DNA from: Candidatus Ryanbacteria bacterium RIFCSPLOWO2_12_FULL_44_26
GTDB lineage: Bacteria; Patescibacteriota; Minisyncoccia; Ryanbacterales; HO2-45-13
DNA: 64,000 bases
Assembly: GCA_001821765.1 (NCBI GenBank)
Contig: MHOA01000001.1
Coordinates: 1,580 to 65,579 of the forward strand
Direction of reading: 5' to 3'
The translations under genes were made by a program, and so were the position numbers. Positions 1,278-59,182 of this stretch are shown in pieces; within the stretch, counting starts at the first letter, position 1, and each line of letters starts with the position of its first letter. The notes below the pieces were generated by a model. It saw nothing but the letters and a program-made list of their open reading frames with translations. It was not told where the DNA came from and ran no database searches.

Positions 1278-1278
1278 T

Positions 1279-1995: not shown

Positions 1996-1999
1996 TCAT

Positions 2000-3501: not shown

Positions 3502-3534
3502 GTGATAGTACGCCTTCCGCACATTTTTTGACTT

Positions 3535-3975: not shown

Positions 3976-4006
3976 CCGATAGGCGGTAGCCGGCGAGTGC
4001 GTAAAC

Positions 4007-7003: not shown

Positions 7004-7007
7004 CTCC

Positions 7008-7586: not shown

Positions 7587-7587
7587 T

Positions 7588-8013
7588 ATGAACCCAAAAA
7601 AGATAAAAAGAAAAAATAGGAAAGAGGGTATAGCGGCTCTTCTCGTCGTTGTGGTGGTAAGCGCTGTTGTGCTGACTATGGCTTTTGGGGCCGCTATGAC
7701 CGGTATTGGCGAGCTCGATATGGGTTTTACCGTCAGTAAGGGAATGACAGCGTTTGCTTTTGCTGACGGTTGCATGGAAGAGGCGCTTCGAAGATTACGG
7801 ATTGACAAGAGTTGGCCATCGGCGTTGCTCTCCGTTGATGGCGGATCGTGTATAATGTTTAATGTTGACAATGCTGATATAAACCCGCCTAATGACAGAA
7901 GGACGATTTTGGTTGTTGGCAGTGACGGCACGTATTTTTCTTTCATAGAGGCGGTGGTTGACGTTTTAGATATCGGCAACGTGGTTACGATACAGACGTG
8001 GAAGGAAATATAA
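7588..8013 (+). CDS. Putative minor pilin/pseudopilin-like protein
   Basis: Internal Met (MNPKKIKRKNRKEG) directly after upstream stop; basic N-term then hydrophobic helix IAALLVVVVVSAVVLT; two Cys later. Confidence 0.45.
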   Translation: MNPKKIKRKNRKEGIAALLVVVVVSAVVLTMAFGAAMTGIGELDMGFTVSKGMTAFAFADGCMEEALRRLRIDKSWPSALLSVDGGSCIMFNVDNADINPPNDRRTILVVGSDGTYFSFIEAVVDVLDIGNVVTIQTWKEI

Positions 8014-8038
8014 ACATATTTTTCATCCGTGTTTCATT

Positions 8039-10048
8039 ATGTTTGTTTTTAGTAAGTCCTCGGTTGGAGTAGACATCGCCGACGGCAGCATCGAGGTGGT
8101 AGAGCTTTCAAGGCATCTCGGTCGCTTTTTGGTAAGTCGAAGAAACCGCGTGACGCTTCCTGCCGGTATCGTTGAGCGCGGAAGAATTGTGAAAAAGGTG
8201 GAGCTGGCGGGAGCGGTTCATGAAGCATTTCAAACGGCCAGCCCTTCGCCAATCACCAAAAAAGACATCATTTTCGGACTTCCGGAAGGCCATGTATACA
8301 CGCATGTTTTTAGATTTCCCTTGCCGCTTTCTAAAATAACCCGCGCTGTTGTTGTAAAAGAGACTCGTTGTTCAATTCCTCTTTCGGAAGATGATGTTGT
8401 TTTTGACTATATCATTCGCCGGTCAACGCCAGCAGAAACAGAAATACTCATCGTTGCATCGAGCAGGGCATTTATGACTGAGTGGAATCATTTTTTTGCT
8501 GAAAACGGTTTTACTGTCAAAACGTTTGACATCGAAACACTGGCAACGTTTCGCGGACTTTTCAAAGGGAATCCCGCTTCCCCTGTTTGTGTTGTTGATA
8601 TGGGGGCGGCAACATCCCTGATTGCTGTTTTTGACGCATCCGGCCTTATCTATGCGCACGCTGTTCCCATTGCCGGCAACGCAATAACTGACCAGATCGC
8701 AGCGTCTCTGAAGCTTTCTATCAAAGAGGCGGAGAAACAAAAAAAGGAAAAAGGATTAAGCGACAGCAAATCAAAGCTGTTTCTTGTTATAGTGAAAGCG
8801 CTTGAGCCGTTGCTTCAAAAGATAAAAATCTCTTTAGGATATATTGAGGGAAAAACCGGAAAGCCTGTTGCCCGCGTGATTTTCGTGGGTATGTCTTCAA
8901 AGATGAAGGGACTCTTGGATTATTTCGGGTCTAATCTTGAAGTATCTGTTGAAGAAGCTCCTTCCAGCATCGGCGGCAGTCATGTAGGAGCTTATATTGA
9001 AGCTCTGGGACTTGCGCTACGGGCATGGAAAGATACGGATCCAAAACTCACGTTGCCGGAGGTCCAGCGAACATCCATCATTGCTGCCACAAAAAAGTCT
9101 TTCGTCAACAAATTCTTTTCATTCAAAAGACCGGTTGCTCCCCAAAAACCTCCTACGCACATCGCTGAAGATATCAGGTTTCTAGAGCGCAAAAAAGATC
9201 CAATCCAGACCCAGCACAAAGGACTTTTTTGGTTATTAATAGTACTTGTTGTTTTTGTTATCGCTGGGGGCGGGCTGTGGTGGTTTTTAAACCGCCAACA
9301 GGCGCCGTCTCCTGTTGCAAGCGTAAAGACGGATATTCCGAATTTGAACATTCAGTTATTTTCCCTTACATTTCCTGTTGCAATCCATGAAAGTGAATAT
9401 GGCGAAGGACGTGTCAGCGGACGTGTTTTGAAAGAAATATACAGCACCATTGAAGATTATGCTGAAGCAGTTGCGCGTTCATGGAGTGTTGTTCGCGAAG
9501 AGCTCCAGCCCGGAGAAGCGCTCTTTTTTGAACCTATCAATAAACTGAACGAGAGCGCGGGGTCTATATCTCCATTCACATTGGAATGGCTGGCGTATTC
9601 TTTAGATGAATTGGATACTTTGATTCGTAAGGAAGTAGACAGGACAAACGAACTCCATATTCCATATGAGGTCGGACCAGTACATGGCATACGCGCATAT
9701 AAAACGGAAAACCCAGGTATTGTTATATTCGAGGTTTCAGTAACGCTTACACTGAATGAGTTAATTGCGGGTTTAGGCGAGAAAATAGAGGTTTATGGGG
9801 GTATAGCGGAAACAAAAAACGAACAAGCGCTGGATAACGAAGAGAAACAGTTTGTGCTCATAAAAAAAACAGAGATGGGATGGTTGAATGCGAGAACAGG
9901 TCCCGCAACGACCTACACAATTTTGAAAAAAGTGTATCCGGGTGAGCGTTATCCGTTGCTTGAAGAAAGACAAGACTGGGTTCGCATTGAGGTTGCTGAA
10001 GGGCAGGATGCATGGGTTGCCGTAAGATACATTGAGTTGTTGGAATGA
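8039..10048 (+). CDS. PilM-PilN fusion protein with C-terminal bacterial SH3 (SH3b) domain
   Basis: N-term actin-like PilM fold signature (GVDIADGSIEVVEL), central TM helix (LFWLLIVLVVFVIAGGGLWWFL) as in PilN, C-term GWLNARTGPATTYTILKKVYPGERYPLLEERQDWVRIEV SH3b motif. Confidence 0.7.
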   Translation: MFVFSKSSVGVDIADGSIEVVELSRHLGRFLVSRRNRVTLPAGIVERGRIVKKVELAGAVHEAFQTASPSPITKKDIIFGLPEGHVYTHVFRFPLPLSKITRAVVVKETRCSIPLSEDDVVFDYIIRRSTPAETEILIVASSRAFMTEWNHFFAENGFTVKTFDIETLATFRGLFKGNPASPVCVVDMGAATSLIAVFDASGLIYAHAVPIAGNAITDQIAASLKLSIKEAEKQKKEKGLSDSKSKLFLVIVKALEPLLQKIKISLGYIEGKTGKPVARVIFVGMSSKMKGLLDYFGSNLEVSVEEAPSSIGGSHVGAYIEALGLALRAWKDTDPKLTLPEVQRTSIIAATKKSFVNKFFSFKRPVAPQKPPTHIAEDIRFLERKKDPIQTQHKGLFWLLIVLVVFVIAGGGLWWFLNRQQAPSPVASVKTDIPNLNIQLFSLTFPVAIHESEYGEGRVSGRVLKEIYSTIEDYAEAVARSWSVVREELQPGEALFFEPINKLNESAGSISPFTLEWLAYSLDELDTLIRKEVDRTNELHIPYEVGPVHGIRAYKTENPGIVIFEVSVTLTLNELIAGLGEKIEVYGGIAETKNEQALDNEEKQFVLIKKTEMGWLNARTGPATTYTILKKVYPGERYPLLEERQDWVRIEVAEGQDAWVAVRYIELLE

Positions 10049-34784: not shown

Positions 34785-35786
34785 ATGAAAATAGCGATAA
34801 ATGGTTTTGGCAGGATAGGACGGACGTTTTTTCGTCAGGCATTTGGGCAAAAGAATATTGATATTGTTGCTATCAATGATCTTGGCAGTGCCGGGAATCT
34901 TGCATATCTTTTACAATATGATTCTGTCTATGGGAGATATAGCAAACCCGTTCAGCTGGCCGGTGAGGATTTAACGGTAGACGGAAAGAAAATTTATTTT
35001 CTACAAATAAAAGATCCCTTAGAGCTTCCATGGAAAAAGCTGGACATTGATATAGTGATAGAATCAACAGGCGTCTTCGCCACTTCGGAAAAATCAAAAG
35101 CACACATCAATGCCGGTGCGAGGCGCGTCGTGATCACCGCTCCCGCAGAAGATGACGAAACCATCACTGTTACTCCGCATGTTGGAGAAAAAAAAATAAA
35201 GGACGTGCGTATAACGTCTAATGCTTCCTGCACCACTAATGCTACAACTCCTGTGGTGACTATTTTAATGCAGAACCCCGGCATTGAGAAAGCGATTCTC
35301 AGCACTGTGCACGGATATACCGCTACCCAAGCAATTGTGGATGGTCCCGATAAAAAGGATTGGACCCGCGGCCGCGCAGCTGCTGTCAACATTGTGCCTT
35401 CCACTACCGGCGCTGCTATTGCTACTGAAAAGGCAGTGCCGGATATAAAAGGTAAGTTTGACGGCATTGCAATAAGAGTGCCTGTTATCACCGGCTCGGT
35501 TATAGATTTTACTTTTATTGCGAGCAGAAACACCTCTCGGGATGAAATTAATGATATTTTCAGGCAAGCCGCACAAGATGACTTCTGGAAAGGAATCTTT
35601 TCAGTTTCAGAACAGCCTCTTGTTTCAACAGACATCATAGGCAATGCGCACGGCTCCATCGCGGATCTGCACTTTACGAAAGTTGTTGATGGGAATCTCG
35701 TGAAAGTGCTTGCGTGGTATGACAACGAGTGGGGATATTGTTCCATGCTTGTAAAACACGTTTTGTCGCTTAAACCTTTCCTATAA
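34785..35786 (+). CDS. gap: Glyceraldehyde-3-phosphate dehydrogenase
   Basis: MKIAINGFGRIGR, active-site SNASCTTN. Confidence 0.9.
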   Translation: MKIAINGFGRIGRTFFRQAFGQKNIDIVAINDLGSAGNLAYLLQYDSVYGRYSKPVQLAGEDLTVDGKKIYFLQIKDPLELPWKKLDIDIVIESTGVFATSEKSKAHINAGARRVVITAPAEDDETITVTPHVGEKKIKDVRITSNASCTTNATTPVVTILMQNPGIEKAILSTVHGYTATQAIVDGPDKKDWTRGRAAAVNIVPSTTGAAIATEKAVPDIKGKFDGIAIRVPVITGSVIDFTFIASRNTSRDEINDIFRQAAQDDFWKGIFSVSEQPLVSTDIIGNAHGSIADLHFTKVVDGNLVKVLAWYDNEWGYCSMLVKHVLSLKPFL

Positions 35787-36005
35787 ACAACCTTCTTGAA
35801 ACAAAATCTGCACAAAAAACAACGATCGTAGGAAAATGTGTACTTTTAGAAAAGTATGTACTTTTTAGTTTCTACAGGGAGCATGACGGCTACCAGCAAG
35901 ATGTATATATAGTATGATGTAATGATTTATGCTTCAAACATGCCGTTTCATGTCCGCGTGCTTTTTTTTTGTCTTTCTAGTTAGTGATATAATGAAACGT
36001 GATTT

Positions 36006-36473
36006 ATGAGAGTATTTTTGGGAGCTGACCATGCTGGGTATGAGTTGAAAGAAACGCTAAAGTCATATCTTCGTGATGTAGGATACATTATTGAAGACTG
36101 CGGTGCGTTTAGGCTGAATGCAGATGATGATTATCCGGATTTTATAGGGGAAGCGATAAAAAAATTGAAAAAAAGTTTAGAGAAAGACGCAGATGCTGTT
36201 GCAATTGTAATGGGCGGATCAGGGCAAGGTGAGGCTATGGTAGCTAATAGATTTCATGGAATAAGGGCTGCGGTGTATTACGGGGGCAATGCGGATATCA
36301 TTAAACTCTCAAAAGAACATAACGATGCAAATGTCCTTTCATTAGGCGCCCGATTCATATCAGCACAGGAAGCAAAAGAGGCAGTTTCATTATGGTTGAA
36401 AACGGTTTTTTCCGGAGAAGAGCGGCACAAACGAAGGCTAAAGAAAATCCATGCCTTATACAAAGGCATTTAA
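36006..36473 (+). CDS. rpiB: Ribose-5-phosphate isomerase B
   Basis: MRVFLGADHAGYELK...GSGQGEAMVANRFHGIRAAV. Confidence 0.85.
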   Translation: MRVFLGADHAGYELKETLKSYLRDVGYIIEDCGAFRLNADDDYPDFIGEAIKKLKKSLEKDADAVAIVMGGSGQGEAMVANRFHGIRAAVYYGGNADIIKLSKEHNDANVLSLGARFISAQEAKEAVSLWLKTVFSGEERHKRRLKKIHALYKGI

Positions 36474-36480
36474 AAGATAT

Positions 36481-37146
36481 ATGGGATCTGTTGAGATTAT
36501 ACCGGCGATCAACGTTAATACATTTGAGGAGCTTGTAAAAAGAATAAAAATTATAGAAGCATATCTCATGCCGCTCGCAGACGGGCCGCAATGGGTGCAC
36601 ATTGATGTTGCAGACGGGTCTTTTACTGAAAATACCATTTGGCATAATTTTATTGATTTGAAAAATTTTCAAACAACTCTCAACGTGGAAATGCACTTAA
36701 TGATAAACAATATAGACTCAGATATTTTTAATTGGTTGTTTCCAGTTATAAAAAGAAATATATTTCATTTAGAGGCCGCCGAAAATGCATTAAATGTAAT
36801 TGATATTTGCCATGAAGCTGGCATTAAGGCCGGCGTTGCAATTAACCCGGAAACGCCGTGGGAGAGTCTTGAATCTATCTTCGGCGAAGCAGATCTTATT
36901 CAAACGCTTGCGGTGCACCCCGGCGTTGCCGGACAGGAATTTGATGAATATATATTTACGAAAATCAGCGATATACGCCGCTCGTGCCCCGGATGTATGT
37001 TGGAGGTTGATGGCGGGGTGAAAGTCGGCATTGCGCGCAAATGTGTCGGGATGGGCGCGAATATTATTGTTGCCGCATCAGCGATTTTTAATAACCCCGA
37101 TGTAACAGAAGCGTATCGCGCATTGAAAGACGATGCACGGCTGTAA
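36481..37146 (+). CDS. rpe: Ribulose-phosphate 3-epimerase-like
   Basis: IIPAINV...HIDVADGSF...HLM...GVAINPETP; start after rpiB stop. Confidence 0.7.
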   Translation: MGSVEIIPAINVNTFEELVKRIKIIEAYLMPLADGPQWVHIDVADGSFTENTIWHNFIDLKNFQTTLNVEMHLMINNIDSDIFNWLFPVIKRNIFHLEAAENALNVIDICHEAGIKAGVAINPETPWESLESIFGEADLIQTLAVHPGVAGQEFDEYIFTKISDIRRSCPGCMLEVDGGVKVGIARKCVGMGANIIVAASAIFNNPDVTEAYRALKDDARL

Positions 37147-37277
37147 TGTCATGCCGGTTTATGTTGTTGAATCGCTTGAAGTATTATAATGATATTATTA
37201 CGGCAGATAGAAAATATATGTAAAGTGGAAAGTGTATGGTCCGTAGACGATACTATAAGGTTATAGTTCCTTAATTC

Positions 37278-38138
37278 ATGAACCATCTTCACGACAAAAA
37301 GATAAAATTTCTTGAAGAAAAGGCAAACGCGATTCGTCAATCTATCATTGAGGAGTTGGTAGAAGCGGGTTCGGGGCATACTGCGGGGCCTCTCGGCATG
37401 GCCGATGTTTTCACTGCTTTTTATTTCCACATCTTAAATCATAATCCTAAAAAACCTTTCTGGGAGGATCGTGATCGTCTTATTTTATCAAACGGGCATA
37501 TTTGTCCTGTGCAATACGCAACCCTTGCTCATGCAGGATACTTTCCGCTTAAAGAACTGAAGACGTTAAGAAAATTCGGCACACGACTTCAGGGTCATCC
37601 CCACAAAGACACATTGCCGGGCGTGGAGACGACATCCGGTCCTTTGGGTTCTGGTCTCGGTCAGGCAGCCGGCATGGCGTATGGTGCGCGTATGGATAAT
37701 AAATCGTTCCGTGTGTATTGTTTGATGTCAGACGGAGAACACGACGCGGGAAATCTGTGGGAGGGTGTTATGTTTACCGGAAAGAATAAGCTGCATAATC
37801 TAACGGGACTCATTGACAGAAACAATATTCAGATTGACGGTATGACTGAAAATATTATGCCGCTTGAACCTCTTAGGGAAAAATATGAGGCGTTTAACTG
37901 GCACGTTATTGACATCAATGGTCATGATTTTGAGGCAATTGTTGGCGCTGTTGAGGAAGCGAAGGCAATTTATGAAAAGCCGACTGTAATTATTGCGCAC
38001 ACCATCCCCGGCAAAGGCATAAAGGAAATTGAATTTGATTATACGTGGCATGGAAAACCTCCGAAGTCCGACGAGGCAAGAAAATTTTTACATGAGCTGA
38101 GAACGCTTGGAGGAAAAATTAAAAGTGAACATGAGTAA
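37278..38138 (+). CDS. Transketolase, N-terminal subunit (split tkt)
   Basis: SGHTAGPLGMADV, GHPH, TPP-binding GDG. Confidence 0.85.
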   Translation: MNHLHDKKIKFLEEKANAIRQSIIEELVEAGSGHTAGPLGMADVFTAFYFHILNHNPKKPFWEDRDRLILSNGHICPVQYATLAHAGYFPLKELKTLRKFGTRLQGHPHKDTLPGVETTSGPLGSGLGQAAGMAYGARMDNKSFRVYCLMSDGEHDAGNLWEGVMFTGKNKLHNLTGLIDRNNIQIDGMTENIMPLEPLREKYEAFNWHVIDINGHDFEAIVGAVEEAKAIYEKPTVIIAHTIPGKGIKEIEFDYTWHGKPPKSDEARKFLHELRTLGGKIKSEHE

Positions 38139-38292
38139 TTCAATAAACAAAAGCAGGCTTCATATGCTCATATTTTGCATTGTTGCTCTTGGGATGACGT
38201 TATTGGTGCTTCAGCAGTGGTATGTGACGGTCAGTGCAATAGATGCGCTTTATGCGAACAGTTACTATTACGATATAAAGCTAAGGGATTTA

Positions 38293-39305
38293 TGATTCGT
38301 TCCGGGGCAAAACTCGTTGAAAATATATTTGATGCCGAATCTATTGAGCAAATCCCAACCCGTAATGGCTATGGGGAGGGTCTTGTAGAGGTTGGTGAAA
38401 AGGATTCAAGGGTGGTTGCGTTGTGCGCTGATCTTACCGAATCAACGAGAACACAAGAGTTTGCTGATAAATTCCCAGAGAGATTTATTCAGATTGGGGT
38501 CGCTGAACAGAATCTTGCCACTGTTGCTTCTGGGCTTGCGAGTTACGGGAAAATTCCTTTTATTGCAAGTTATGCTATGTTCAGCCCCGGAAGAAACTGG
38601 GAACAGATCAGAACGACGGTTTGCTATAATAATGTTCCTGTTAAAATTATCGGCGCTCATGCAGGGGTGTCGGTTGGACCTGACGGCGCAACGCATCAGG
38701 CAATTGAAGACATGGCTATTATGCGGCCAATTGCCAATATGACTGTTATAGCTCCTTGTGATGTCCACGAGGCGAGAAAGGCGGTTATTGCTTCTGTTGC
38801 TGTTAATGGCCCGGTGTACATGCGGTTTGCACGCGAAAAGACACCGGTTTTTACCACCGCTGCATCACCTTTTAAAATAGGGAAAGCAGAGGTGTTTTTT
38901 GACTCTTCAAGTAGTTCAGGACGAAGCGCCCGACTTGATGTCGCTATTGTTGCATGCGGTCCGTTGGTTTATAACTCATTATTGGCAGCTGGTAGACTTC
39001 TTAAGGACGGCATACGGGTGCGTGTTGTGAATAATCATACCGTCAAGCCGATGGACGAAAAAACCATTATAAAGGCCGCGAGGGATGCTGGCGCAGTAGT
39101 AACAGTGGAAGAACATCAGGTGATGGGTGGCATGGGATCTGCGGTTGCGGAAGTTCTTGCAAAAAATTATCCTGTTCCTATGGAGTTTATAGGGGTTCAA
39201 AACCGCTTTGGAGAATCCGGTTCACCGGATGACTTGATTGAAGCATTCGGCATGGGAGTGAAGGCAATTACTGGCGCCGTAAAAAAGGTGTTGAAGCGAA
39301 AGTAA
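38293..39305 (+). CDS. Transketolase, C-terminal subunit (split tkt)
   Basis: Pyrimidine-binding and C-terminal domains; start at MIRSGAKLVENIF. Confidence 0.85.
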
Positions 39306-39411
39306 TGCGGTGCAGCCCATTTTTGTATGAGTGATCTATCGCCATGACTATAAAAGATGACATATGTGGGATGAAAAATAAAAAGGTCTCCATTATTGTT
39401 TCATTGTTCTA

Positions 39412-39609
39412 TTGAATATGAAAGAAAACATAAAAAAATTTGGAATAGTACTCTGGTTGGCAGCTTTCTTTACCTATGTAGGCGGCTTTGCGGCGCTTTC
39501 CTATGGCAGAGATTTTCTGGGAATCGGCTGGCAGGTTTGGTTCTGGAATTCTTTACTGCTCGGCGTGCTGGCCATTGGCGTGAAGCTTGGAGTTTTAATA
39601 GAAGAGTAG
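39412..39609 (+). CDS. Small membrane protein, hypothetical
   Basis: Two TM helices; weak RBS. Confidence 0.3.
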   Translation: MNMKENIKKFGIVLWLAAFFTYVGGFAALSYGRDFLGIGWQVWFWNSLLLGVLAIGVKLGVLIEE

Positions 39610-39782
39610 CGGCGGATATCTGAAGCAATATTCCATAAAGCCTTTCGACAACACAGGCGGCCCCAGCCAGCAGATTAGTTGTGTTGGTTATGGTCGCCCT
39701 AAATGAGGAGTTTGTTTGTTTTATATCCTTTCAATACCTTCGCTATCCAGCGGTATAGAAAAAGTTTTTTGGTTGTTTAGTT

Positions 39783-40769
39783 TTAGAGAATTTTCGTGGG
39801 CGTATAAAAATCCGGCGCTTCTTTCATGAACTGTTCCAGTTGGTCACGGGTCAGCAGTCCCTTTTGTGCGCCTGTATATTGCACAACGGACATGGAGTTT
39901 GTCGGTCCCCAAGCAAGTGCTTCGGGGATGGATTTTCCAAGCGCAAGCGCCACTGTAAATGTGGATGAGTAACTGTCTCCCGCTCCGGTTCGGTCGTACG
40001 GCGGTTTTGGATCCGGATACATTGGCATTTTCCATGCGTTTTTTCCGTCGTATGCATATGCTCCGTTGGGACCGTCTGTTATAGAGACAATACGCGGACC
40101 TCGTTCGTGCATCAACTGCAGCAGTTTTATCAAATCTTCTTCTTTTGTGTTTAAAATCCTTTGAGCCTCCTGAAGATTACAGAAAAAAAGATCAGAAATC
40201 TCGTATACATCTTTTAAGATTTCGTAACCCAGCTTTATTTGAAAGGTTCCCGGCTGGTAGGCGAGTTTAATACCGGGATGCTTTTTTATATATTGGACTA
40301 TTTCATGATGAAAAGGGACGGAGTTTTCACCAAGGGAGCTTAAATACATCCAGCGCGGCTTTCCGACATCAGGCATTTTGTAATCGTATTCTTCGTGCTT
40401 AATAAGAATGGTACGCTCTGCTTTAAACCAAAGGACATAGTGGTAGTTTGTGGGTTTTCCCTTATGGATTGAAACAAAATCAATTGCAACTCCGTTGTTT
40501 TGAAGCGACTCCAGGCACTCTTTCCCGTTTTGATCGTCTCCCAGATTTGTAATAACCGCTGATTTCAAACCCAATCGTGCGGCGCTGACCGCAGCGTTTG
40601 GGCTATTCCCGACAGCGCGAACAACTTCAACGCGCTCGTAAGGAATTTTATCTCCAAACCGGACGCAGAGTTCTTTTGTATGATGATTCATGTGCACATC
40701 CGCGTCCTTTAAACGTATGAATGCGTCCGTTGTAATATCGCCGAGCGCAATAAAATCAAATGTATTCAT
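39783..40769 (-). CDS. PfkB-family carbohydrate/nucleoside kinase
   Basis: N-terminal GG motif region, C-terminal TGAGDSY. Confidence 0.8.
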   Translation of the reverse strand: MNTFDFIALGDITTDAFIRLKDADVHMNHHTKELCVRFGDKIPYERVEVVRAVGNSPNAAVSAARLGLKSAVITNLGDDQNGKECLESLQNNGVAIDFVSIHKGKPTNYHYVLWFKAERTILIKHEEYDYKMPDVGKPRWMYLSSLGENSVPFHHEIVQYIKKHPGIKLAYQPGTFQIKLGYEILKDVYEISDLFFCNLQEAQRILNTKEEDLIKLLQLMHERGPRIVSITDGPNGAYAYDGKNAWKMPMYPDPKPPYDRTGAGDSYSSTFTVALALGKSIPEALAWGPTNSMSVVQYTGAQKGLLTRDQLEQFMKEAPDFYTPTKIL

Positions 40770-40912
40770 TTAAAGAATATTAGTTGGTAATGGTGCTGTT
40801 TGAGTTTTGCAGGCAATGTTTCCTAAGGAGCGCATATGTCAGGTATCTCTATCAACAGTGTACGCACTATATAATCTACATAATATCATAAGCATGTGTT
40901 AAACTAAAAACG

Positions 40913-41788
40913 ATGATGACGCTTTCAGAAGTTTTAGATGTGGCGAGAAGCGGAAGATGGGCTGTACCTCATTTTAACATTTCTAATTTCGTTCAGTTAA
41001 AAGGCATTATTGCGGCTTGTGCGGAACTGCGCTCGCCGGTGATGATCGGAACCTCCGAGGGTGAAGTCGAGTTTATTGGGTTCAAGGTGGCCCGCGCGAT
41101 GGTTGATGCGCTGAAAGCCGAAACAGGACTCCCTCTGTTTCTCAATGCCGACCATTTTCATAGTTTCGCGATGTGCAAAAAAGCCATTGACGAAGGGTAT
41201 GATGGAGTGCATATTGATATGTCAAAAAAACCTTATAAAGAGAATATCAATGAGACCAAGCAAGTTGTGCGATATGCACGAGCAGCAGAAAAAGATATCA
41301 GTGTTGAAGGAGAACTTGGTTATATTGTGACTGACTCGTCAAAGATTTATAAAAAAATTGTGGCAATACCGCAAGAAAGTCTTACTAAGCCGGGAGAAGC
41401 GATCTCGTACATAGAGGAAACCGGCGTGGATCGTTTTGCGGCTGCAGTGGGGAGCTTGCACGGCATCGCCGCAAACAAGCCGATATTGGATTTTTACCGC
41501 ATTGAAAGACTGCGTGAGATTATTCCAAAAAATACCACTTTGGTACTCCACGGCGGTTCTGGGCTCCTTGATAATGACTTTAAGCGTGCCATCGAATTGG
41601 GTATAAATAATATTCACATCTCAACAACGATACGAGCTGCCTATATAAAGGCTTTAAAAAAGGCTCTGAAAGAAAAGAAAGATGAAACCACACCGTATAA
41701 ACTATATGACCCTGTTGTTCGCGCAGTTGCTGAAACGGTAAAAGAACACATAAAGCTCTTTGGGTCGCAAAATAAATCAATGGAATAA
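40913..41788 (+). CDS. fba: Class II fructose/tagatose-bisphosphate aldolase
   Basis: VPHFNISN, ...NADHF..., LHGGSG. Confidence 0.85.
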   Translation: MMTLSEVLDVARSGRWAVPHFNISNFVQLKGIIAACAELRSPVMIGTSEGEVEFIGFKVARAMVDALKAETGLPLFLNADHFHSFAMCKKAIDEGYDGVHIDMSKKPYKENINETKQVVRYARAAEKDISVEGELGYIVTDSSKIYKKIVAIPQESLTKPGEAISYIEETGVDRFAAAVGSLHGIAANKPILDFYRIERLREIIPKNTTLVLHGGSGLLDNDFKRAIELGINNIHISTTIRAAYIKALKKALKEKKDETTPYKLYDPVVRAVAETVKEHIKLFGSQNKSME

Positions 41789-41860
41789 ACAGTTTGCTTT
41801 TAGCCGATAGGTTTGCATACATCGTCATTTCAGTTATTATTCGCTCATTAATTAAAATTT

Positions 41861-42838
41861 ATGCCGAAGGTATATGTAACACGCATGATCCCTCAAGCAG
41901 GGATTGAGAAATTAAAAGAGAAAGGATATGACGTTACCATAAATCCAGATGACCAGGCGCTGGATACATCGGAACTGATAGACGCCCTTAAGGGGAAAGG
42001 GTATGATGCAGTGCTTTGTCTTTTAACTGATCATGTGAACGCTGAAGTATTGGATGCTGCTGGCAGTAATTGCAGGATCTTTGCGAATTATGCCGTCGGG
42101 TATGATAACATAGACGTCAAAGCCGCATCAGAGCGCAACATTGTGATAACAAATACACCCGGCATTCTTACCGAAAGCGTAGCAGAACATACGTTTGCGC
42201 TGATGCTTGCAATCAGCCGCCGCATAGCAGAAGCAGACAGGTTTGTAAGAGCAGGAAAGTATAAGGGTTGGGCGCCGAAATTGCTTTTAGGAAACGACGT
42301 TTCTGGTAAAATCATCGGGATTGTGGGGCTTGGACGTATCGGAAGCCGCGTTGCTCATCATGCCGCAGGAGGATTTGACGCGCGTATCATATATCACGAC
42401 CTTACAAGAAATGAAGAATTTGAAAAAAGTGTCGGCGCCGTTTATAGAGAAACACTTGAAGAACTCTTGGGAGAAGCGGATTATGTATCTTTGCACGTCC
42501 CGCTTCTTCCTCAGACAAAGCATCTTATCAACGCCGAGAAACTGAAGCTCATGAAACATTCTGCGTATCTTATAAATACGTCGCGCGGTCCGGTCATTGA
42601 TGAAGCGGCACTTGTGCATGCCCTTAAAAAGAAAGAAATCAAAGGTGCTGCTTTGGATGTTTTTGAGGATGAGCCGGAATTAAAACCCGGACTTGCTGAA
42701 TTGGACAACGTTATTCTTACCCCCCACATTGCTTCCGGAACTGAAGAAACAAGAAATAAAATGGCAGAAATGGCCGCCGAGAACATTATCGCTGTTTTTG
42801 AGGGCCGTACACCGCCGCAGCTTGTAAAACCAAGCTGA
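41861..42838 (+). CDS. D-isomer-specific 2-hydroxyacid dehydrogenase (glyoxylate/hydroxypyruvate reductase-like)
   Basis: GIVGLGRIGSRVA, NTSRGPVIDEAAL, catalytic His region. Confidence 0.8.
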   Translation: MPKVYVTRMIPQAGIEKLKEKGYDVTINPDDQALDTSELIDALKGKGYDAVLCLLTDHVNAEVLDAAGSNCRIFANYAVGYDNIDVKAASERNIVITNTPGILTESVAEHTFALMLAISRRIAEADRFVRAGKYKGWAPKLLLGNDVSGKIIGIVGLGRIGSRVAHHAAGGFDARIIYHDLTRNEEFEKSVGAVYRETLEELLGEADYVSLHVPLLPQTKHLINAEKLKLMKHSAYLINTSRGPVIDEAALVHALKKKEIKGAALDVFEDEPELKPGLAELDNVILTPHIASGTEETRNKMAEMAAENIIAVFEGRTPPQLVKPS

Positions 42839-44974: not shown

Positions 44975-45724
44975 TTAGTTGCCAGTTTTTATTGATTGCT
45001 CTTTTTTGCTTTTTTTAAAAGTTTCTATGATCGTCTCAAGGTTGCCATTCAGTATTTTCTCAATATGGCGCCATGATTTTTTTATACGGTGATCAGTAAT
45101 ACGGTCTTGCAGATAGTTATAGGTTCTCATTTTTTCTGAACGTTCTTGGAATCCGATTTGTATTCGGCGTTCGCTTGCGGTTTTACTTATGACACCTCCA
45201 TGCTCTCGATCGTACAGCTTTGCTCTTAAAATTGACATGGCGCGCTCACGGTTTTGTTGTTGGGAGCGTTCTGTTTGTGCTCTTACAACAATGCCGGTTG
45301 GCTTGTGTAATATACGTACAGCTGTTTCAACTTTATTTACATTTTGTCCTCCCGCGCCTCCTGATCGGGCGAATGTTATCTCAAGGTCCTGTGGTTTTAT
45401 TTCAATATCTGTCGGTGGAACCTGTTTTAAGATGGCGACTGACGCCGTCGAGGTGTGTATGCGGCCGGACTTCTCTGTTTTCGGTATGCGTTGTACTCTG
45501 TGTACTCCGCTTTCTTGAGACAATTCTTCGTATATGTTTTCTCCTTTCAGTTCGAAGATACCTTCTTTTAAACCACCCAGATCATTTTTTGATTCGCTGA
45601 TACAGTGCATCGTCCATCCTCGTTTTGCTGCGTACATTGCATACATATTGCTCAGCGTATCAGCAAAAAGCGCTGCTTCATCTCCGCCGGCCCCCGCTCG
45701 TATCTCTAAAAGAATGCTGTTCAT
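44975..45724 (-). CDS. prfA: Peptide chain release factor 1, N-terminally short (domains 2-4 only, 249 aa)
   Basis: RF1-type [17 protein letters not shown] (PxT) tripeptide, GGQ motif; start ATG overlaps rpmE stop (ATGA); in-frame stop 45 nt upstream excludes a longer N-terminus. Confidence 0.8.
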
Positions 45725-45984
45725 AAAACCTTTGTAGACTTTTTTTCCGATTTTTTGCGGGATTTTTTAGCGGGAGTTTTTAAACGGCGTTCAATTTTTT
45801 TCTGAAATTTTTCAATTCGTCCGGCAGTGTCAATAAGTTTTTCTTTTCCAGTATAGAATGGATGGCATTTGTAGCAAATTTCAACTTCAAGTTTTTCTTT
45901 TGTGGACCCCACGATAAAACTGTTTCCGCATGCACAGGTTACTTTAGCGTTCTGGTGATATGTTGGATGTAAGCCTTTTTTCAT
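45721..45984 (-). CDS. rpmE: 50S ribosomal protein L31
   Basis: [21 protein letters not shown]...[11 protein letters not shown]. Confidence 0.85.
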
Positions 45985-46243
45985 AATGTGTTGTATAGAT
46001 CTCAAATCAATTTTGAATATTAGAGAAAAGTTTCTGATTAATTAGTGATGATTATAACCGCACTGTACCATATTATATCGGGTCTTGCAATGGTTGTGAT
46101 TTTTTATTACAATGTTTCTACCCCTTCAAAGGAGGACCTGTTGGTTGTTATGAACCTTACGGCATTTCCCTCACGGATGAGGTTTGAAGAGATTCATGCA
46201 GCATCAGGCAGTAAAACTTTTTTATTTATCTTCTAAGAGACGT

Positions 46244-47050
46244 ATGGAGGAAACAAATATAATAACACAACCCCCTATAAAACCGGAAATAGAAGCATTA
46301 TTTAATGCAGGGGTTCATTTCGCGTACAAAAAAACGAGGCGTCATCCAAAAATGCGGGAGTATATCGCCGGTGTGCGCAGTAATGTCGAAGTATTTCATC
46401 TTGAACGTGTATATGAAAGACTAGTTGATGCGATGGCCTTTATGGAGAAACTCGGAACCGAGTCGGCGGTAATTCTATGGATTGGAACAAAACCCGCCGC
46501 TTGCTCTATTATTACCGACACGGCGACAGCGCTACAGCACCCATATGTTGCGAAACGCTGGATAGGAGGAACGCTGACGAATTTTAAAATCATTCGCGGA
46601 AGGGTTGAATATCTGAAAACCTTGGAAGAAGCTATACAAAATCCAGACTTTTTAAAATATCCAAAGCACGAACGCATGAAGACGAAAAAGGAAGTAGAAA
46701 AACTTCAAGAAGAGTTTGGAAACCTTCGTCTCCTTAAAAGCATTCCGAATGCAATGGTGATTGTTGACGCGAATGAAGAATTGACAGCGGTGACAGAGGG
46801 GCGAAAAGTGGGCGTGAAAACAATTGCCATTATGAATTCGGATTGCGACCCCGACGCTGTGACTTGTCCGATACCGGGGAATGACAATGCCGTTCAAAGC
46901 ATCAAATACTTAATTGGTAAATTAAAAGAAGCATATCTGAAGGGTAAAGCCTCAGCCCCCAAAAAAGACGAAGTGAGGGAAAAAGAGGTAAAAGACGAAG
47001 CATTGCAGAACCCTGTAAAAAACCACCAAGTGCCGGCAAATAGTTCTTGA
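46244..47050 (+). CDS. rpsB: 30S ribosomal protein S2
   Basis: FNAGVHFAYKKTRRHPKM..., conserved S2 core; internal Met start after GGAGG-like RBS. Confidence 0.9.
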   Translation: MEETNIITQPPIKPEIEALFNAGVHFAYKKTRRHPKMREYIAGVRSNVEVFHLERVYERLVDAMAFMEKLGTESAVILWIGTKPAACSIITDTATALQHPYVAKRWIGGTLTNFKIIRGRVEYLKTLEEAIQNPDFLKYPKHERMKTKKEVEKLQEEFGNLRLLKSIPNAMVIVDANEELTAVTEGRKVGVKTIAIMNSDCDPDAVTCPIPGNDNAVQSIKYLIGKLKEAYLKGKASAPKKDEVREKEVKDEALQNPVKNHQVPANSS

Positions 47051-47140
47051 TGAGCATCCAAACAATAATTAATGATCTACTGATAACAGAATCCTCCGGA
47101 CTTATAGGTTATAGATTATACACTATAAGCTATATATCAT

Positions 47141-47596
47141 ATGGATATATCAACTGAACAAATAAAAGCGCTTCGTGAGAAGACTGGTGTTTCAGTCATG
47201 CTGGTAAGAAAAGCTTTAATTGAAGCTGGTGGAGATGAAAAAGAAGCAATGAAGAAACTTGAAAAACTTGAAAGTCATCTGGCAGACAAGAAAGCGCAGC
47301 GCAATGCTTCTATGGGTGTTGTGGAATCATATATTCATCATGATGGTCGTGTTGGAGTGCTTTTGGCGCTTAAGTGTGAAACCGATTTTGTTGCCAGGAA
47401 CGAAGAGTTTAAAAAGGAAGCACACAATATTGCAATGCACATCGCCGCTATGGATCCGGCTGACAAGGAAGCGCTTCTAGGGGAACCATATGCGCTGGAT
47501 CAGTCCAGGACAGTATCCCAGGTGCTTGCCGCCATAACGACGAAGTTTGGTGAGCACATCACGATTGAAAAATTTGTTCGTTACTCCATTTCATGA
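47141..47596 (+). CDS. tsf: Elongation factor Ts (short form)
   Basis: N-terminal UBA-like LREKTGVSVMLVRKALIEAGGD; 151 aa. Confidence 0.8.
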   Translation: MDISTEQIKALREKTGVSVMLVRKALIEAGGDEKEAMKKLEKLESHLADKKAQRNASMGVVESYIHHDGRVGVLLALKCETDFVARNEEFKKEAHNIAMHIAAMDPADKEALLGEPYALDQSRTVSQVLAAITTKFGEHITIEKFVRYSIS

Positions 47597-48045
47597 TTCT
47601 GGTATTTCTTACAATATTTGTTATCAGTTTTCTTTGGATTGTGGTGATTATGTGGTGGCATACGCCAAATATGTTAAGAGCAAATAATGCTGTTTTTCTT
47701 AAGAGTCAAAGCTTTCACTTAAAAACTGACAGAATATTATCCTTCACCATTATTGTCGGTTTTGTAGAACATATTGTGAAAGTTCGTGTCATACCTCAAG
47801 TGCTTCGTTTTCTGGGTTTTTGTTTTTTTATTATTGAGCGCGGAGCGACTATTGTTTCTATAAAAGCGAGGCGTGTCCGCGCTTTTTTACAAAGCAAATC
47901 AGCGGTAACAGCTCATCAGTCTTCATATTGGGATGAAATTCGCCAATGGAAGAAGAAAAACGGGCTGGAAAATGGAAAAGCGCCTGAAAAAATAAATTTT
48001 GCGGTAGCAGATCATGATATTTCCAACCATCGTATCGATGATTAA
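47593..48045 (+). CDS. Hypothetical membrane protein
   Basis: ATGA overlap with tsf; two N-terminal TM helices. Confidence 0.35.
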   Translation: MILVFLTIFVISFLWIVVIMWWHTPNMLRANNAVFLKSQSFHLKTDRILSFTIIVGFVEHIVKVRVIPQVLRFLGFCFFIIERGATIVSIKARRVRAFLQSKSAVTAHQSSYWDEIRQWKKKNGLENGKAPEKINFAVADHDISNHRIDD

Positions 48046-53441: not shown

Positions 53442-53503
53442 ATACATAAGGTATAATACACTCTATAGTTTGCTTTGCGTTAGTTCGCATTTATAGCATA
53501 CAT

Positions 53504-53532
53504 GCGTCGGTGGCGGAGTGGACAATCGCACC
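53504..53532 (+). repeat. 29-nt exact copy of the 5' end of the downstream tRNA-Tyr gene (acceptor 5' strand + D-arm)
   Basis: Identical to 53797-53825; immediately followed by hairpin CCCCGC-TATAA-GCGGGG. Confidence 0.7.
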
Positions 53533-53558
53533 CCGCTATAAGCGGGGCGGCCTTATAT

Positions 53559-53834
53559 ATGTGGTATGTTTATATTCTTAAGAGTAAAAAGGATAATAAA
53601 TATTATATTGGATGTACATCAGATTTAGATAAACGTCTTGTTCGTCATAATAAAGGAGGCAATAAATCTACTAAAAACAGGAAACCGCTTGAGCTTATTC
53701 ACCGTGAGTTATATGATGATAAACATCAAGCTCTAGCCAGAGAACGAAAGATAAAAAGTTATAAGGGTGGTGATGAGTTTAAGAGGTTAATATCAGGCGT
53801 CGGTGGCGGAGTGGACAATCGCACCAGACTGTAA
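53559..53834 (+). CDS. Small GIY-YIG nuclease-domain protein (COG2827/YhbQ-like); stop codon lies in the tRNA-Tyr anticodon loop
   Basis: WYVYIL...YYIGCT...R..H...ERKIKSYKG GIY-YIG motifs; ORF runs into tRNA-Tyr. Confidence 0.6.
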   Translation: MWYVYILKSKKDNKYYIGCTSDLDKRLVRHNKGGNKSTKNRKPLELIHRELYDDKHQALARERKIKSYKGGDEFKRLISGVGGGVDNRTRL

Positions 53835-53883
53835 ATCTGGCGGCCTCAGGCCTACGCAGGTTCGAATCCTGCCCGGCGCACCA
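53797..53883 (+). tRNA. tRNA-Tyr (anticodon GUA), long variable arm, CCA encoded
   Basis: GCGTCGG/CCGGCGC acceptor, CCAGA-CTGTAAA-TCTGG anticodon arm, GCAGG-TTCGAAT-CCTGC T-arm. Confidence 0.85.
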
Positions 53884-53922
53884 AGACACAACTCAATTCA
53901 GTTTCAGAGATTTTTTAATCAT

Positions 53923-54429
53923 ATGAATCCAGAAAAACCAAATTTCAATCCAGAACCTCCAAAAGAGGAAAATAAAGAAATCAAGGGTGATGGTTTTGTA
54001 ATGGGCGGTAAGGATAGAAAACCGTCTCGGTTTTCTAGTTTTTCCCATGATACTTCCGTAGAATTTCGACCAGGCGAAACCAACGAAGGAAAGATAAAAG
54101 CGAAAGAAGAAGCAATGAAAAAAGAAATTGAGCGCACTAAAAATTTCACTGACGCTGACTATGCCGAAGATTTGTTGAGTGGTATGCTCGAGACGAATAA
54201 TCCTTATTCGGAAACCTTTAAAATTAAACCTGATGGAAAATTTGATAAAATTTTGAGAGCAGATGGCGCTCCTGTTTATTTGGTGGCATATGGTGATACA
54301 CCGGCTGAACTTTACAAAATTGCAGCAGAGATAGAGAAGAAGCATCCGGAGTATTATTTTGCTTTCGAAACCGATCCGCAAGGACAGTGGATGAAATATA
54401 CGGTTTCGAAATCCGAAACTGAAAAATAA
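53923..54429 (+). CDS. Hypothetical protein (168 aa, Lys/Glu-rich)
   Basis: Internal Met after tRNA; no domain recognised. Confidence 0.4.
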   Translation: MNPEKPNFNPEPPKEENKEIKGDGFVMGGKDRKPSRFSSFSHDTSVEFRPGETNEGKIKAKEEAMKKEIERTKNFTDADYAEDLLSGMLETNNPYSETFKIKPDGKFDKILRADGAPVYLVAYGDTPAELYKIAAEIEKKHPEYYFAFETDPQGQWMKYTVSKSETEK

Positions 54430-56127: not shown

Positions 56128-57258
56128 ATGTTTAGGGAAAAGAAAGGTAAGGGCAAGACGAAAATTAAAAAACTGTCAAAGCAGAAAAAACGGCCCCCAA
56201 AAAGAGCTCCCAAGAGCATTAAAAGAAAGACAGAAAAGAAAAAACAACCTGGCACGCCGGCTCTTGTAAGAGCAGTAGAAAATCCGATTATTCTGCCAAA
56301 ACCCGAACATCACTGGGAGGCATGGCAGACGTTTAACCCCGGAGTTATCTTGCTTGAAGATAAAATACATTTTCTCTATCGAGCAATCGGGGAAGACGGT
56401 ATCTCGCGTTTCGGATATGCTGTTTCCAGTGATGGATTTGCGATTGATGAGCGATTACCAAACCCAGTTTTCGAGCACCGCTTCACAAAGCCGGTGTTTA
56501 ATTTTTATTCTTTTGTTTCAGGAGGAAGTTTCGGGGGGAGCGAAGATCCGCGCATTGTTCAGGTAAACGGAGAAGATACATTATATATGACTTATACTGC
56601 TTGCGATGAAGGATTGAGAATGGCCTTGTCATCAATAAAAGTTAAGGACTTTTTACGGAAAAAGTGGACATGGGAATTGCCGGTTTTGATCTCGCCGCCC
56701 GGAGAACTTCATAAAAACTGGGTTATTTTCCCGGAAAAAATAAATGGGAAGTATGCTGTCTTGCACAGCATCAGCCCTGAAATATCCATCGCTTATCGCG
56801 ACAGTTTGGAATTTCAAGAAGGCGAATACATTTACAGTTTTTATAACGGCAATAATAGCCAAAGAAAAAATTGCTGGGATAGTTGGGTGCGGGGCGTTGG
56901 GGCGCCGCCGATTAAAACAAATAAAGGCTGGCTGTTGTTTTATCATGCCATCGATGAAAGCGACCCCGGCAAGTACAAGGTTGGCGCCATGCTTCTGGAT
57001 ATACATAATCCGGCTAAAATACTTTGCCGCTCTCAAGAACCAGTTCTGGAGCCGGAAAAAGATTATGAAAGCAACGGTTTTAAAGCGGGTGTTATATATG
57101 TATCCGGAGCGGCGGTGAAAAACGGAGAACTTTTGGTGTATTATGGCGCTTCGGATAGCTATATCAGTGTGGCCCACGCACCAGTAGAGGAATTTTTGAA
57201 CAGATTAATAAGTCAGGCCAAACCGAAACTCAAGGCAAAAACTCTAAAGGGAACATAA
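56128..57258 (+). CDS. GH130/DUF377-like beta-propeller glycosidase/phosphorylase-family protein with highly basic N-terminal tail
   Basis: ...EDPRIV...YMTYTA... pattern; N-terminal 45 aa K/R-rich. Confidence 0.5.
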   Translation: MFREKKGKGKTKIKKLSKQKKRPPKRAPKSIKRKTEKKKQPGTPALVRAVENPIILPKPEHHWEAWQTFNPGVILLEDKIHFLYRAIGEDGISRFGYAVSSDGFAIDERLPNPVFEHRFTKPVFNFYSFVSGGSFGGSEDPRIVQVNGEDTLYMTYTACDEGLRMALSSIKVKDFLRKKWTWELPVLISPPGELHKNWVIFPEKINGKYAVLHSISPEISIAYRDSLEFQEGEYIYSFYNGNNSQRKNCWDSWVRGVGAPPIKTNKGWLLFYHAIDESDPGKYKVGAMLLDIHNPAKILCRSQEPVLEPEKDYESNGFKAGVIYVSGAAVKNGELLVYYGASDSYISVAHAPVEEFLNRLISQAKPKLKAKTLKGT

Positions 57259-57259
57259 G

Positions 57260-59182
57260 ATGATTATTGAGCGCTTTAAGAAAAATCCGATACTCACGCC
57301 GGATAAAAATCAGTCTTGGGAAGCTGAGGCTGTTTTTAATGGTTGTCCTGTTCGGAAAGGAAATAATGTTTTTCTCCTTTATCGTGCCGTTTCTCTGATC
57401 CATTATCACACGTTGGCAAAAGCAAAACTCATGGTGTCTGATATCGGTATTGCCGAAAGCAAAGACGGGCTCAATTTTTATGACCGAAAACGGTTTATTT
57501 TTCCAGAGCACGAGTGGGAAAGGTTCGGTTGTGAAGATCCGCGAATAACAAAACTGGACAACAAATACTATATCTTTTATACCGCGCTTTCAAGCTGGCC
57601 TCCCCGAACGGAGCATATAAAAGTAGGACTTGCCATAAGCAAAGATTTAAAAACGATTGAAAAAAAACATCTTATAACCCCCTTCAACGCTAAAGCAATG
57701 GCTCTTTTTCCGGAAAAAATCAATGGCAAAATCTGGGCGGTTTTGACGGTGCACACTGATCGGCCGCCGGCAAAAATATGCCTTGTTTCTTTTCAAAGAG
57801 AAGAAGATATCTGGAATGAATCATATTGGAATAAATGGTATCAAAATTTTGATAAGTATTCTTTGCCGCTTCAACGCCGGCCGCAGGACCATATCGAAGT
57901 CGGCTCTCCGCCGATAAAAACAAAACATGGCTGGCTTTTATTTTATTCCTATATTTGGGATTATATTTCTCCCCGAAGGTCTTTTAGTATTGAAAGTGTA
58001 CTGCTGGATTTAAAAAATCCTTTTAAGATTATCGGAAAAACCGATTTCCCACTTCTTTCTCCTGAAGATTATTATGAAAAACACGGTATAGTGCCGAATG
58101 TCGTTTTTCCTTCCGGAGCGTTACTGAATAAAAATACGATCTCATTATATTATGGAGCCGCAGATACTACCTGTGCGGTTGCTTTTATTGATCTCCCCTC
58201 GCTTATTGATAAGTTTATAAAAAAACAAATCGTTCTGATAAAGCTTCGTCGAGCCAACATAAATCCAATCATCACGCCAAACAAAAATCATCCTTGGGAA
58301 GCAAAAGCGACATTCAACCCGGCGGCCATGTATCTTAAAGGAAAAGTTCACCTGCTTTATCGGGCAATGTCGGAAGATAACACTTCAGTGCTTGGTTATG
58401 CGACAAGTCGGGACGGCATTCACATAGATTATCGTTCTCCGGAGCCGGTTTATATTCCTCGGGAACAATTTGAACAAAAGCTTGAAAGGGGAGGAAATTC
58501 AGGCACGGAAGATCCGAGACTCGTAAAAATTGGGAGCAGAATTTATATGTTCTATACCGCCTTTGATGGGAAAAATCCGCCGCGAGTGGCTTTCACTTGG
58601 ATTAAAGAGCAGGATTTTTTAAACAAGAAGTGGGATTGGTCGCGTGCCATGCTTATCTCCGCTCCTGATTTGGATGATAAAGATGCAGCTATGTTTCCGG
58701 AAAAAATAAAAGGGCGGTACCTTATTATTCATCGCGTCGGCGACGATATTGATTTCTCTCATCATAAAACACTGGATTTTAACGGGACGAATTGGCTTGA
58801 AGAGTATCGCTGGATAATGCCGAGGAAAGGACGGTGGGATTCGAGAAAGGTTGGTGTTGCCGCTCCGCCGATAAAAACAAAGGCAGGCTGGCTTCTGCTC
58901 TATCACGGAATTTCAGAAGAAGACCAGTTTTATCGCGTAGGAGCGATATTAGTTGGTTTGCGTGATCCTGCAAAAATTATCTGTCGCACGGATTATCCGA
59001 TTTTTGAACCGGAAACTTCTTATGAAAAAGAAGGAGAGGTTTCAAATGTGGTATTTCCTTGTGGGGCGGCACTTATTGGCAAAAAACTTTTCGTATATTA
59101 CGGAGGAGCGGATAAAGTGGTTGGAGTGGCTACGGTGAATATTGATGAGCTTCTCGGTGTGCTTAAGGTATGTAAATGTTAG
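57260..59182 (+). CDS. Tandem double GH130/DUF377-like domain protein
   Basis: Two repeats of the same fold (EDPRIT..., EDPRLV...), 640 aa. Confidence 0.5.
   Translation: MIIERFKKNPILTPDKNQSWEAEAVFNGCPVRKGNNVFLLYRAVSLIHYHTLAKAKLMVSDIGIAESKDGLNFYDRKRFIFPEHEWERFGCEDPRITKLDNKYYIFYTALSSWPPRTEHIKVGLAISKDLKTIEKKHLITPFNAKAMALFPEKINGKIWAVLTVHTDRPPAKICLVSFQREEDIWNESYWNKWYQNFDKYSLPLQRRPQDHIEVGSPPIKTKHGWLLFYSYIWDYISPRRSFSIESVLLDLKNPFKIIGKTDFPLLSPEDYYEKHGIVPNVVFPSGALLNKNTISLYYGAADTTCAVAFIDLPSLIDKFIKKQIVLIKLRRANINPIITPNKNHPWEAKATFNPAAMYLKGKVHLLYRAMSEDNTSVLGYATSRDGIHIDYRSPEPVYIPREQFEQKLERGGNSGTEDPRLVKIGSRIYMFYTAFDGKNPPRVAFTWIKEQDFLNKKWDWSRAMLISAPDLDDKDAAMFPEKIKGRYLIIHRVGDDIDFSHHKTLDFNGTNWLEEYRWIMPRKGRWDSRKVGVAAPPIKTKAGWLLLYHGISEEDQFYRVGAILVGLRDPAKIICRTDYPIFEPETSYEKEGEVSNVVFPCGAALIGKKLFVYYGGADKVVGVATVNIDELLGVLKVCKC

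Follow-up and report, generated by a model that had tools for sequence, protein, structure and literature searches.

The 64,000 nucleotides of Candidatus Ryanbacteria DNA analysed here (the window) encode a release factor 1 (RF1) whose chain opens with the first beta-strand of domain 2, the whole of domain 1 being absent. Its gene, prfA, occupies positions 44975..45724 of the minus strand, stop codon included, and the 249-aa product is made up of RF1 domains 2, 3 and 4 only. Very probably, this is an ordinary, functional RF1, orthologous to prfA of other bacteria, whose domain 1 has been deleted and whose shortened gene has been kept by purifying selection.

The gene, its reading frame and the missing domain

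The ATG of prfA (45722-45724) and the TGA of rpmE (45721-45723) overlap in an ATGA (45721..45724 (-), in the context ttttATGAac), as the preliminary description of this DNA had noted. The rpmE gene, directly upstream (45721..45984 (-)), encodes the 87-aa ribosomal protein L31 (Pfam Ribosomal_L31, E = 2.5e-29). It had also been claimed that an in-frame stop 45 nt upstream bars any longer product, and translation confirms this: the stop lies at 45767..45769 (-), and none of the 14 codons of the RF1 frame on the 5' side of the ATG is an ATG, GTG or TTG, so that no start codon is available in between. In total, six stops fall in this frame within 180 nt upstream of the ATG, that one being the nearest. 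Moving upstream from prfA, the intact L31 gene (264 nt, in another frame) is followed by a spacer of 199 nt and then by rpsB of the rpsB-tsf pair, which is divergent from rpmE-prfA (46184..47596 (+); Pfam Ribosomal_S2, with EF_TS in the gene tables), and because these elements occupy the upstream DNA there is no room left for the ~100 codons of domain 1. On the downstream side, prfA is neighboured by a convergent SLT-domain gene.

A lone truncated ORF in a single MAG is normally suspicious, and the NCBI deposit of the 249-aa protein, from a Candidatus Ryanbacteria MAG of the Rifle aquifer (GCA_001819935.1), carries the label 'hypothetical protein'. Both facts could speak for a sequencing or assembly indel, or for a mis-called start, with a full-length gene hidden by a frameshift, which the preliminary description had left standing beside the idea of a real minimal factor. 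Nonetheless, the chance of such an error is practically negligible, since the place where domain 1 would have to be encoded is filled by rpmE, the spacer and rpsB, the RF1 frame is repeatedly closed there, exactly this protein recurs in 56 assembly blocks of the public collection, from several independent assemblies, and the N-terminus is the same in more than 100 diverged homologues. Furthermore, neither tblastn nor HMM searches found anything domain-1-like in any frame of the 64-kb window, which leaves an indel no upstream domain-1 frame to restore.

The same searches bear on a different explanation, namely that the gene is split and that domain 1 is made as a separate small protein elsewhere, joining the 249-aa protein on the ribosome. 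This arrangement is conceivable for a flexibly attached, autonomous helical bundle, and the part of this genome that was searched spans ~84 kb only. However, tblastn with the N-domains of seven full-length or partial relatives, and a search with an HMM derived from these N-domains, both run on the six frames, brought up no ORF resembling domain 1 either in the window or in 12 short-prfA loci. The best values (E 0.4 with the HMM and 0.27 with tblastn) were noise, in a search whose sensitivity is limited by the low identity of domain 1 between relatives (13-28%). Domain 1 is also rich in E/K coiled coil, so that a word-seeded search of whole databases would have hardly any power to find it. In addition, two relatives that keep 61 and 77 N-terminal residues (P0039 and P0099, see below) resemble a progressive erosion and not a clean split. 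A separately made domain 1 is thus regarded as very unlikely, and the simple deletion of domain 1 from a working RF1 is preferred.

The family assignment agrees with this deletion. The Pfam PCRF profile is matched at positions 100-194 of 194 only, its N-terminal part being left without a counterpart, as had been suspected, and the Pfam RF-1 (GGQ) domain is complete (E = 1.2e-37). Of the curated NCBIfam models for RF1, NF001859 is matched at positions 105-345 of 347 (341.1 bits, below the cut-off of 400) and TIGR00019 at positions 113-356 of 361 (333.4 bits, below the cut-off of 423.25), both scores falling short due to the missing domain 1. Within NCBIfam the protein is clearly closer to RF1 than to RF2 (341 vs 219 bits), and the comparison with PDB sequences yields the same order, with 250 bits for RF1, 150 for RF2 and 50 for PrfH. 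The PrfH profile TIGR03072 is matched with 78.8 bits, not reaching its cut-off of 166.65, and the match to the ArfB profile is confined to residues 106-139 (51.9 bits, cut-off 100). In the alignments, residue 4 corresponds to E. coli RF1 residue 111 and to T. maritima RF1 residue 88, and residue 5 to T. thermophilus RF1 residue 108. Profiles and structure alignments therefore bear out the earlier reading of a product that starts at domain 2 and keeps both the PKT, i.e., the PxT 'anticodon' tripeptide of RF1 (residues 81-83, 45476..45484 (-)), and the GGQ motif for peptidyl-tRNA hydrolysis (residues 125-127, 45344..45352 (-)). In RF2, the place of PxT is taken by SPF. In sum, PxT, GGQ, the fold of the domain 2/4 superdomain and of domain 3, a higher score for RF1 than for RF2 and the position next to rpmE are all found, and what is not found is the N-terminal helical domain 1 (PCRF ~1-100) and a score above the curated equivalog cut-off.

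An AlphaFold2 model, calculated on an alignment of 37 homologues of the short RF1 (A1), has the expected layout of beta-sheets and helices (mean pLDDT 83.6, pTM 0.80). Low confidence is restricted to the GGQ loop (124-128) and to residues 179-195, which in the model are taken as the linker before the switch-loop region. Foldseek places RF1 first, with query-normalised TM values of 0.78-0.84 to free or compact structures (1rq0, 1zbt, 2b3t_B and 6orl_A) and of ~0.6 to open, ribosome-bound forms, a lower value that is to be expected from the outward swing of domain 3 in the bound state.

Conservation, synteny and number of losses

The best 120 clusters of relatives at 90% identity were taken as the set to be classified, and a motif test could place 119 of them. 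No more than ~12 real residues precede the I-L-E-I-R-A-G strand in 112 of these 119, a result that answers the earlier suggestion to compare prfA lengths with related genomes, as nearly all of the closest clusters start at the same point. The short forms, all from Patescibacteria of the Parcubacteria type, are of 237-258 aa and 60-76% identical to the query, and come, where a source is named, from Ryanbacteria, 'Pacebacteria', Parcubacteria and unclassified Patescibacteria. All four of the Ryanbacteria-labelled matches among the best 120 are of the short type (one of them, P0013, has a few extra N-terminal residues and is probably mis-called), and no full-length Ryanbacteria RF1 is present among those best 120 matches. 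With more than 100 independent protein clusters sharing the architecture, the truncation is a trait of the lineage and not a product of chance.

The remaining seven classified clusters keep the N-domain wholly or partly. Five of them (P0089, P0102, P0108, P0111 and P0112; 337-350 aa) retain domain 1 in full and share 62-65% identity with the query in domains 2-4, an identity that marks the short proteins as RF1 minus a piece, and not as a separate family of paralogues. The other two, P0039 (299 aa) and P0099 (310 aa), have internal deletions in domain 1 and look, in their sequences, like partial deletions, as if the erosion of the domain had gone only part of the way; each is encoded on a short contig (1.0-1.6 kb).

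In the alignment of 37 homologues, 64 columns are invariant. Among them are E7, R9, G11, G13, G14 and E16 of the helix-5 tip, which in canonical RF1 reads U1, as established from the termination complexes of T. thermophilus. Also invariant are P81 and T83 of PxT, then R88, H90, T91 and S92, further G125, G126 and Q127 of GGQ, and finally R200, T201, Y202 and N203 in the switch-loop region. This bears on whether the gene could be a decaying, non-functional pseudogene, for instance in a genome where UAG is no longer a stop, a reading to which the gene remnants that arise from genome reduction in Patescibacteria might lend some credit. However, all catalytic and decoding motifs are held invariant in spite of identities of 60-76%, more than 100 lineages have an intact ORF, and TAG does end ORFs in this DNA (the 66 ORFs of the window stop with TAA in 33 cases, TGA in 23 and TAG in 10). 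Decay is accordingly judged to be extremely improbable. With TAG and TAA in use as stops, RF1 function is required, and with TGA ending 23 of the 66 ORFs, an RF2 must exist elsewhere in the genome.

A scan of loci with one genome per GTDB species resulted in 80 loci, and in most of them, including those of cyanobacteria, Vampirovibrionales and Elusimicrobia, the L31 gene lies directly upstream of prfA. The rpmE-prfA order is an old and widely shared arrangement, and the window gene sits in it. As this synteny is common to cyanobacteria and other phyla, the window gene can be identified as the ancestral housekeeping prfA. The short form was found in 11 of the 80 loci (L001, L003, L004, L005, L006, L011, L016, L018, L024, L025 and L043), those with a label belonging to Liptonbacteria, Jorgensenbacteria and Nomurabacteria. 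Many other Parcubacteria have a domain 1 of ~80-87 residues, close in length to that of Thermotoga, and cyanobacterial RF1 has ~118 residues ahead of the same motif. Another Ryanbacteria genome (CG10, L084) has the same neighbourhood of rpsB-tsf and rpmE-prfA(short), with a gap of 50 nt between rpmE and prfA, and a 'Pacebacteria' genome has the rpmE-prfA(short) pair with a gap of 134 nt and different genes upstream of rpmE. Due to these gaps of 50-134 nt in relatives, the ATGA overlap of the window is incidental, and translational coupling does not belong to a conserved design.

Synteny also weighs on the proposal of an accessory or rescue role for the 249-aa protein, as a paralogue akin to PrfH or ArfB, with a normal full-length RF1 encoded elsewhere. 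In its favour, PrfH too lacks domain 1 and keeps a decoding domain (PMC1586002, PMC6514570), and the examined part of the genome amounts to ~84 kb. Against it, the PrfH scores are far below those of RF1 both with profiles and with PDB sequences, the RF1-specific PxT is conserved, an RtcB neighbour is absent, the gene occupies the rpmE-prfA slot that in other phyla holds a full-length prfA, and the Ryanbacteria-labelled proteins among the best 120 matches are short in every case. Such a paralogue is very improbable, and the housekeeping RF1 without domain 1 remains the preferred identity. A real minimal release factor in a member of the CPR, which the preliminary description had offered as one of two options, is hence the one that has held up for this Candidatus Ryanbacteria gene, on account of the conserved short form, the invariant decoding and catalytic residues and the rpmE-prfA position.

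How many times was domain 1 lost? In a neighbour-joining tree of the shared RF1 core (194 sequences, 236 columns and 100 bootstraps; a simple method, with short internal branches), most short forms belong to one large clade, whose sister group is made up of full-length Patescibacteria RF1s. The short Nomurabacteria protein L024 is placed within another clade, a full-length one: 93 of 100 bootstraps make it the sister of L046, L027 and L026, and all 100 put it inside that full-length group. Conversely, the full-length P0089 is nested among short forms in 90 of 100 bootstraps. Since the regain of a domain is unlikely and short and full-length forms interleave in the tree, recurrent loss is indicated, and on these sequences domain 1 appears to have been lost independently at least twice, and probably more often than that. 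A single origin of the deletion is opposed by the same tree and its 100 bootstraps, within the limits of a simple method applied to 236 columns.

Candidates for a short RF1 beyond Patescibacteria were also considered, as several representatives at 50% identity start at domain 2. The five that were examined (P0147, P0150, P0181, P0228 and P0236) have been taken as artefacts of assembly or gene calling: three have frameshifted C-termini rich in Arg, Pro and Gly, one has a garbled N-terminus and an unrelated tail, and one has a non-Met start.

Proposed function and comparison with other release factors

In the mechanism proposed for the short RF1, the N-terminal three-helix domain 1 would have been removed by deletion, and the shortened prfA retained under purifying selection. 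UAA and UAG would be read in the A site by the domain 2/4 superdomain, by means of PxT, the G-x-x-E helix tip, RxHTS and the switch loop, and the peptidyl-tRNA bond would be cut by the GGQ loop of domain 3. With domain 1, the short RF1 would have lost the contact to the L11 stalk region and the coupling to the recycling GTPase RF3 that this domain provides in E. coli; termination would not depend on RF3, and the short RF1 would come off the ribosome by itself or be pushed out by the recycling factors that act next. We infer the catalytic activity, the UAA/UAG specificity and the RF3-independence of the short RF1 from work on the deletion of domain 1 in E. coli. Domain 1 is described as the part that interacts with the GTPase RF3 and that decoding and hydrolysis can do without (PMC1586002, PMC6514570), and E. 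coli RF1 without it is stated to release peptides in vitro and to work in vivo, but no longer to stimulate RF3 (Mora et al. 2003 and Vestergaard et al. 2005, as cited in PMC1586002).

Neither RF2, a second RF1, RF3 nor PrmC was found near the gene, in the 64-kb window or within 10 kb past either end, and the same four were not found in the 80 genome loci or around two other short prfA genes. The RF1s of Bacillus, Mycobacterium, Mycoplasma and Chlamydia are, as far as is known, full length although these genera are RF3-less, and because of this the loss of RF3 alone is inadequate to explain the deletion. RF3 is missing in 72 of 191 bacterial genomes, those four genera included (PMC1780047).

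The mean net charge of the RF1 core is +6.0 in the short forms, +4.0 in full-length Patescibacteria RF1s and -2.4 in those of other phyla. Only one column separates short from full-length proteins: residue 216 (K216, 45077-45079 (-)) is Lys in 99% of the short forms and Glu or Gln in most of the full-length ones. The basic core and K216 may represent a compensation for lost ribosome contacts, or else phylogeny and composition, two causes that are confounded here, making the observation a lead only.

With slightly more doubt than conviction, the result can be extended to propose that translation in a large part of the Parcubacteria is terminated by a minimal RF1 touching neither the L11 / L7-L12 stalk nor RF3, and that this state had several independent origins. 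If this were true, domain 1 would be truly dispensable on reduced ribosomes, its loss might have been enabled by some lineage-wide change (for instance a missing RF3, a changed stalk or a more basic core of the release factor with tighter binding to rRNA), and RF2 might have lost its domain 1 likewise. A natural, widespread and apparently recurrent deletion offers a ready-made test system for the role of domain 1 beyond RF3 coupling, both for its share in binding kinetics, accuracy and recycling and for the property of the Patescibacteria ribosome that makes it dispensable.

Nearly every housekeeping RF1 and RF2 described so far has a domain 1, and as far as is known this includes those of RF3-less bacteria. 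The canonical RF1 (NF001859 / TIGR00019), represented by the T. maritima protein (1RQ0), the E. coli protein (2B3T chain B) and the T. thermophilus protein bound to the 70S ribosome, shares with the window protein domains 2-4, PxT, GGQ, the switch loop, the fold and the rpmE-prfA position, and the solved canonical RF1s are 42-50% identical to it over the shared part. The difference lies in domain 1, a helical bundle of ~85-118 residues that contacts the L11 stalk region and RF3 in the canonical protein and that the window protein does not have. The likely function of the window protein is that of canonical RF1, and in architecture it resembles PrfH and the engineered E. coli RF1 without domain 1, a laboratory protein whose deletion ends near the same residue and which retains codon-specific peptide release in vitro (PMC1586002). 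Nevertheless, the E. coli protein is an artificial construct in a host that contains RF3, and the stimulation of RF3 is lost in it, whereas the deletion in the window arose in nature, has become fixed in many lineages and seems to have recurred.

Among natural proteins, PrfH (RFH, TIGR03072) is a class-I release factor homologue that, like the window protein, lacks domain 1 and combines a decoding-type domain with GGQ. Unlike it, PrfH has an altered decoding region, occurs sporadically, serves in ribosome rescue and is in all cases encoded beside an RtcB-family gene; in the window protein the decoding motifs are those of canonical RF1, the synteny is that of a housekeeping gene, and the score with the PrfH profile is only 79 bits. 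ArfB (YaeJ), ICT1 and C12orf65 are reduced class-I relatives that also act without domain 1, but they consist only of the GGQ domain and a basic C-terminal tail and are codon-independent, whereas the window protein keeps the whole codon-reading superdomain. A broad survey of release-factor evolution with CPR in its phyletic table gives as reduced forms PrfH, ArfB-type proteins and MRPS35 only (PMC6514570). No description of a housekeeping RF1 without domain 1 in CPR/Patescibacteria was found in the full-text literature, subscription literature lying outside the scope of the search. A natural and apparently recurrent loss of domain 1 in a housekeeping RF1 should be of note, and of experimental use, to specialists in termination, even if the earlier deletion experiments make its viability unsurprising.

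There is also a practical side to it. Short RF1s are deposited under the names 'hypothetical protein' or 'PCRF domain-containing protein', and pipelines that rely on trusted cut-offs would score prfA as missing in the genomes that encode them. Consequently, estimates of completeness, as well as claims of a reduced translation machinery or of stop-codon reassignment, are affected by such false absences.

Other features of the locus and the window

Some further observations concern the genes around prfA. L31 carries a Lys-rich C-terminal tail of ~20 residues (45721-45800 (-)) past its Pfam domain (residues 1-63). EF-Ts, in the region 47141-48045 (+), is short (151 aa), and its end overlaps an ORF of 150 aa (47593-48045) for which no match was found in Pfam or PDB. 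An unannotated ORF of 154 aa occupies the equivalent position in the Ryanbacteria locus L084 (7770-8234). The 150-aa ORF might encode a partner protein peculiar to the lineage, or else the C-terminal half of EF-Ts in diverged form.

At one end of the window, positions 93-10048 (+) hold a type IV pilus-like cluster with a PilB-type T2SSE ATPase, a HisKA/HATPase kinase, a response regulator and a T2SSF platform protein, together with a BNR-repeat protein of 998 aa, an N-methyl pilin-like gene and a PilM/FtsA protein of 669 aa with an SH3 domain. Past the prfA locus, an ORF with a GIY-YIG domain (53502-53834 (+)) runs into tRNA-Tyr (53797-53883), which is also overlapped by an ORF of 208 aa (53803-54429) whose GTG start is probably wrong. 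Two neighbouring genes of the GH130 (mannoside phosphorylase) family lie at 56128-59182 (+), and the second GH130 protein (640 aa) has an N-terminal extension of ~340 residues with no match in Pfam. Finally, a compact sugar-phosphate block (34785-42838) encodes GAPDH, RpiB, ribulose-phosphate 3-epimerase, a PfkB kinase, a class II FBP aldolase and a 2-hydroxyacid dehydrogenase, and the transketolase of this block is split into separate genes for its N and C parts (37278-38138 and 38175-39305).
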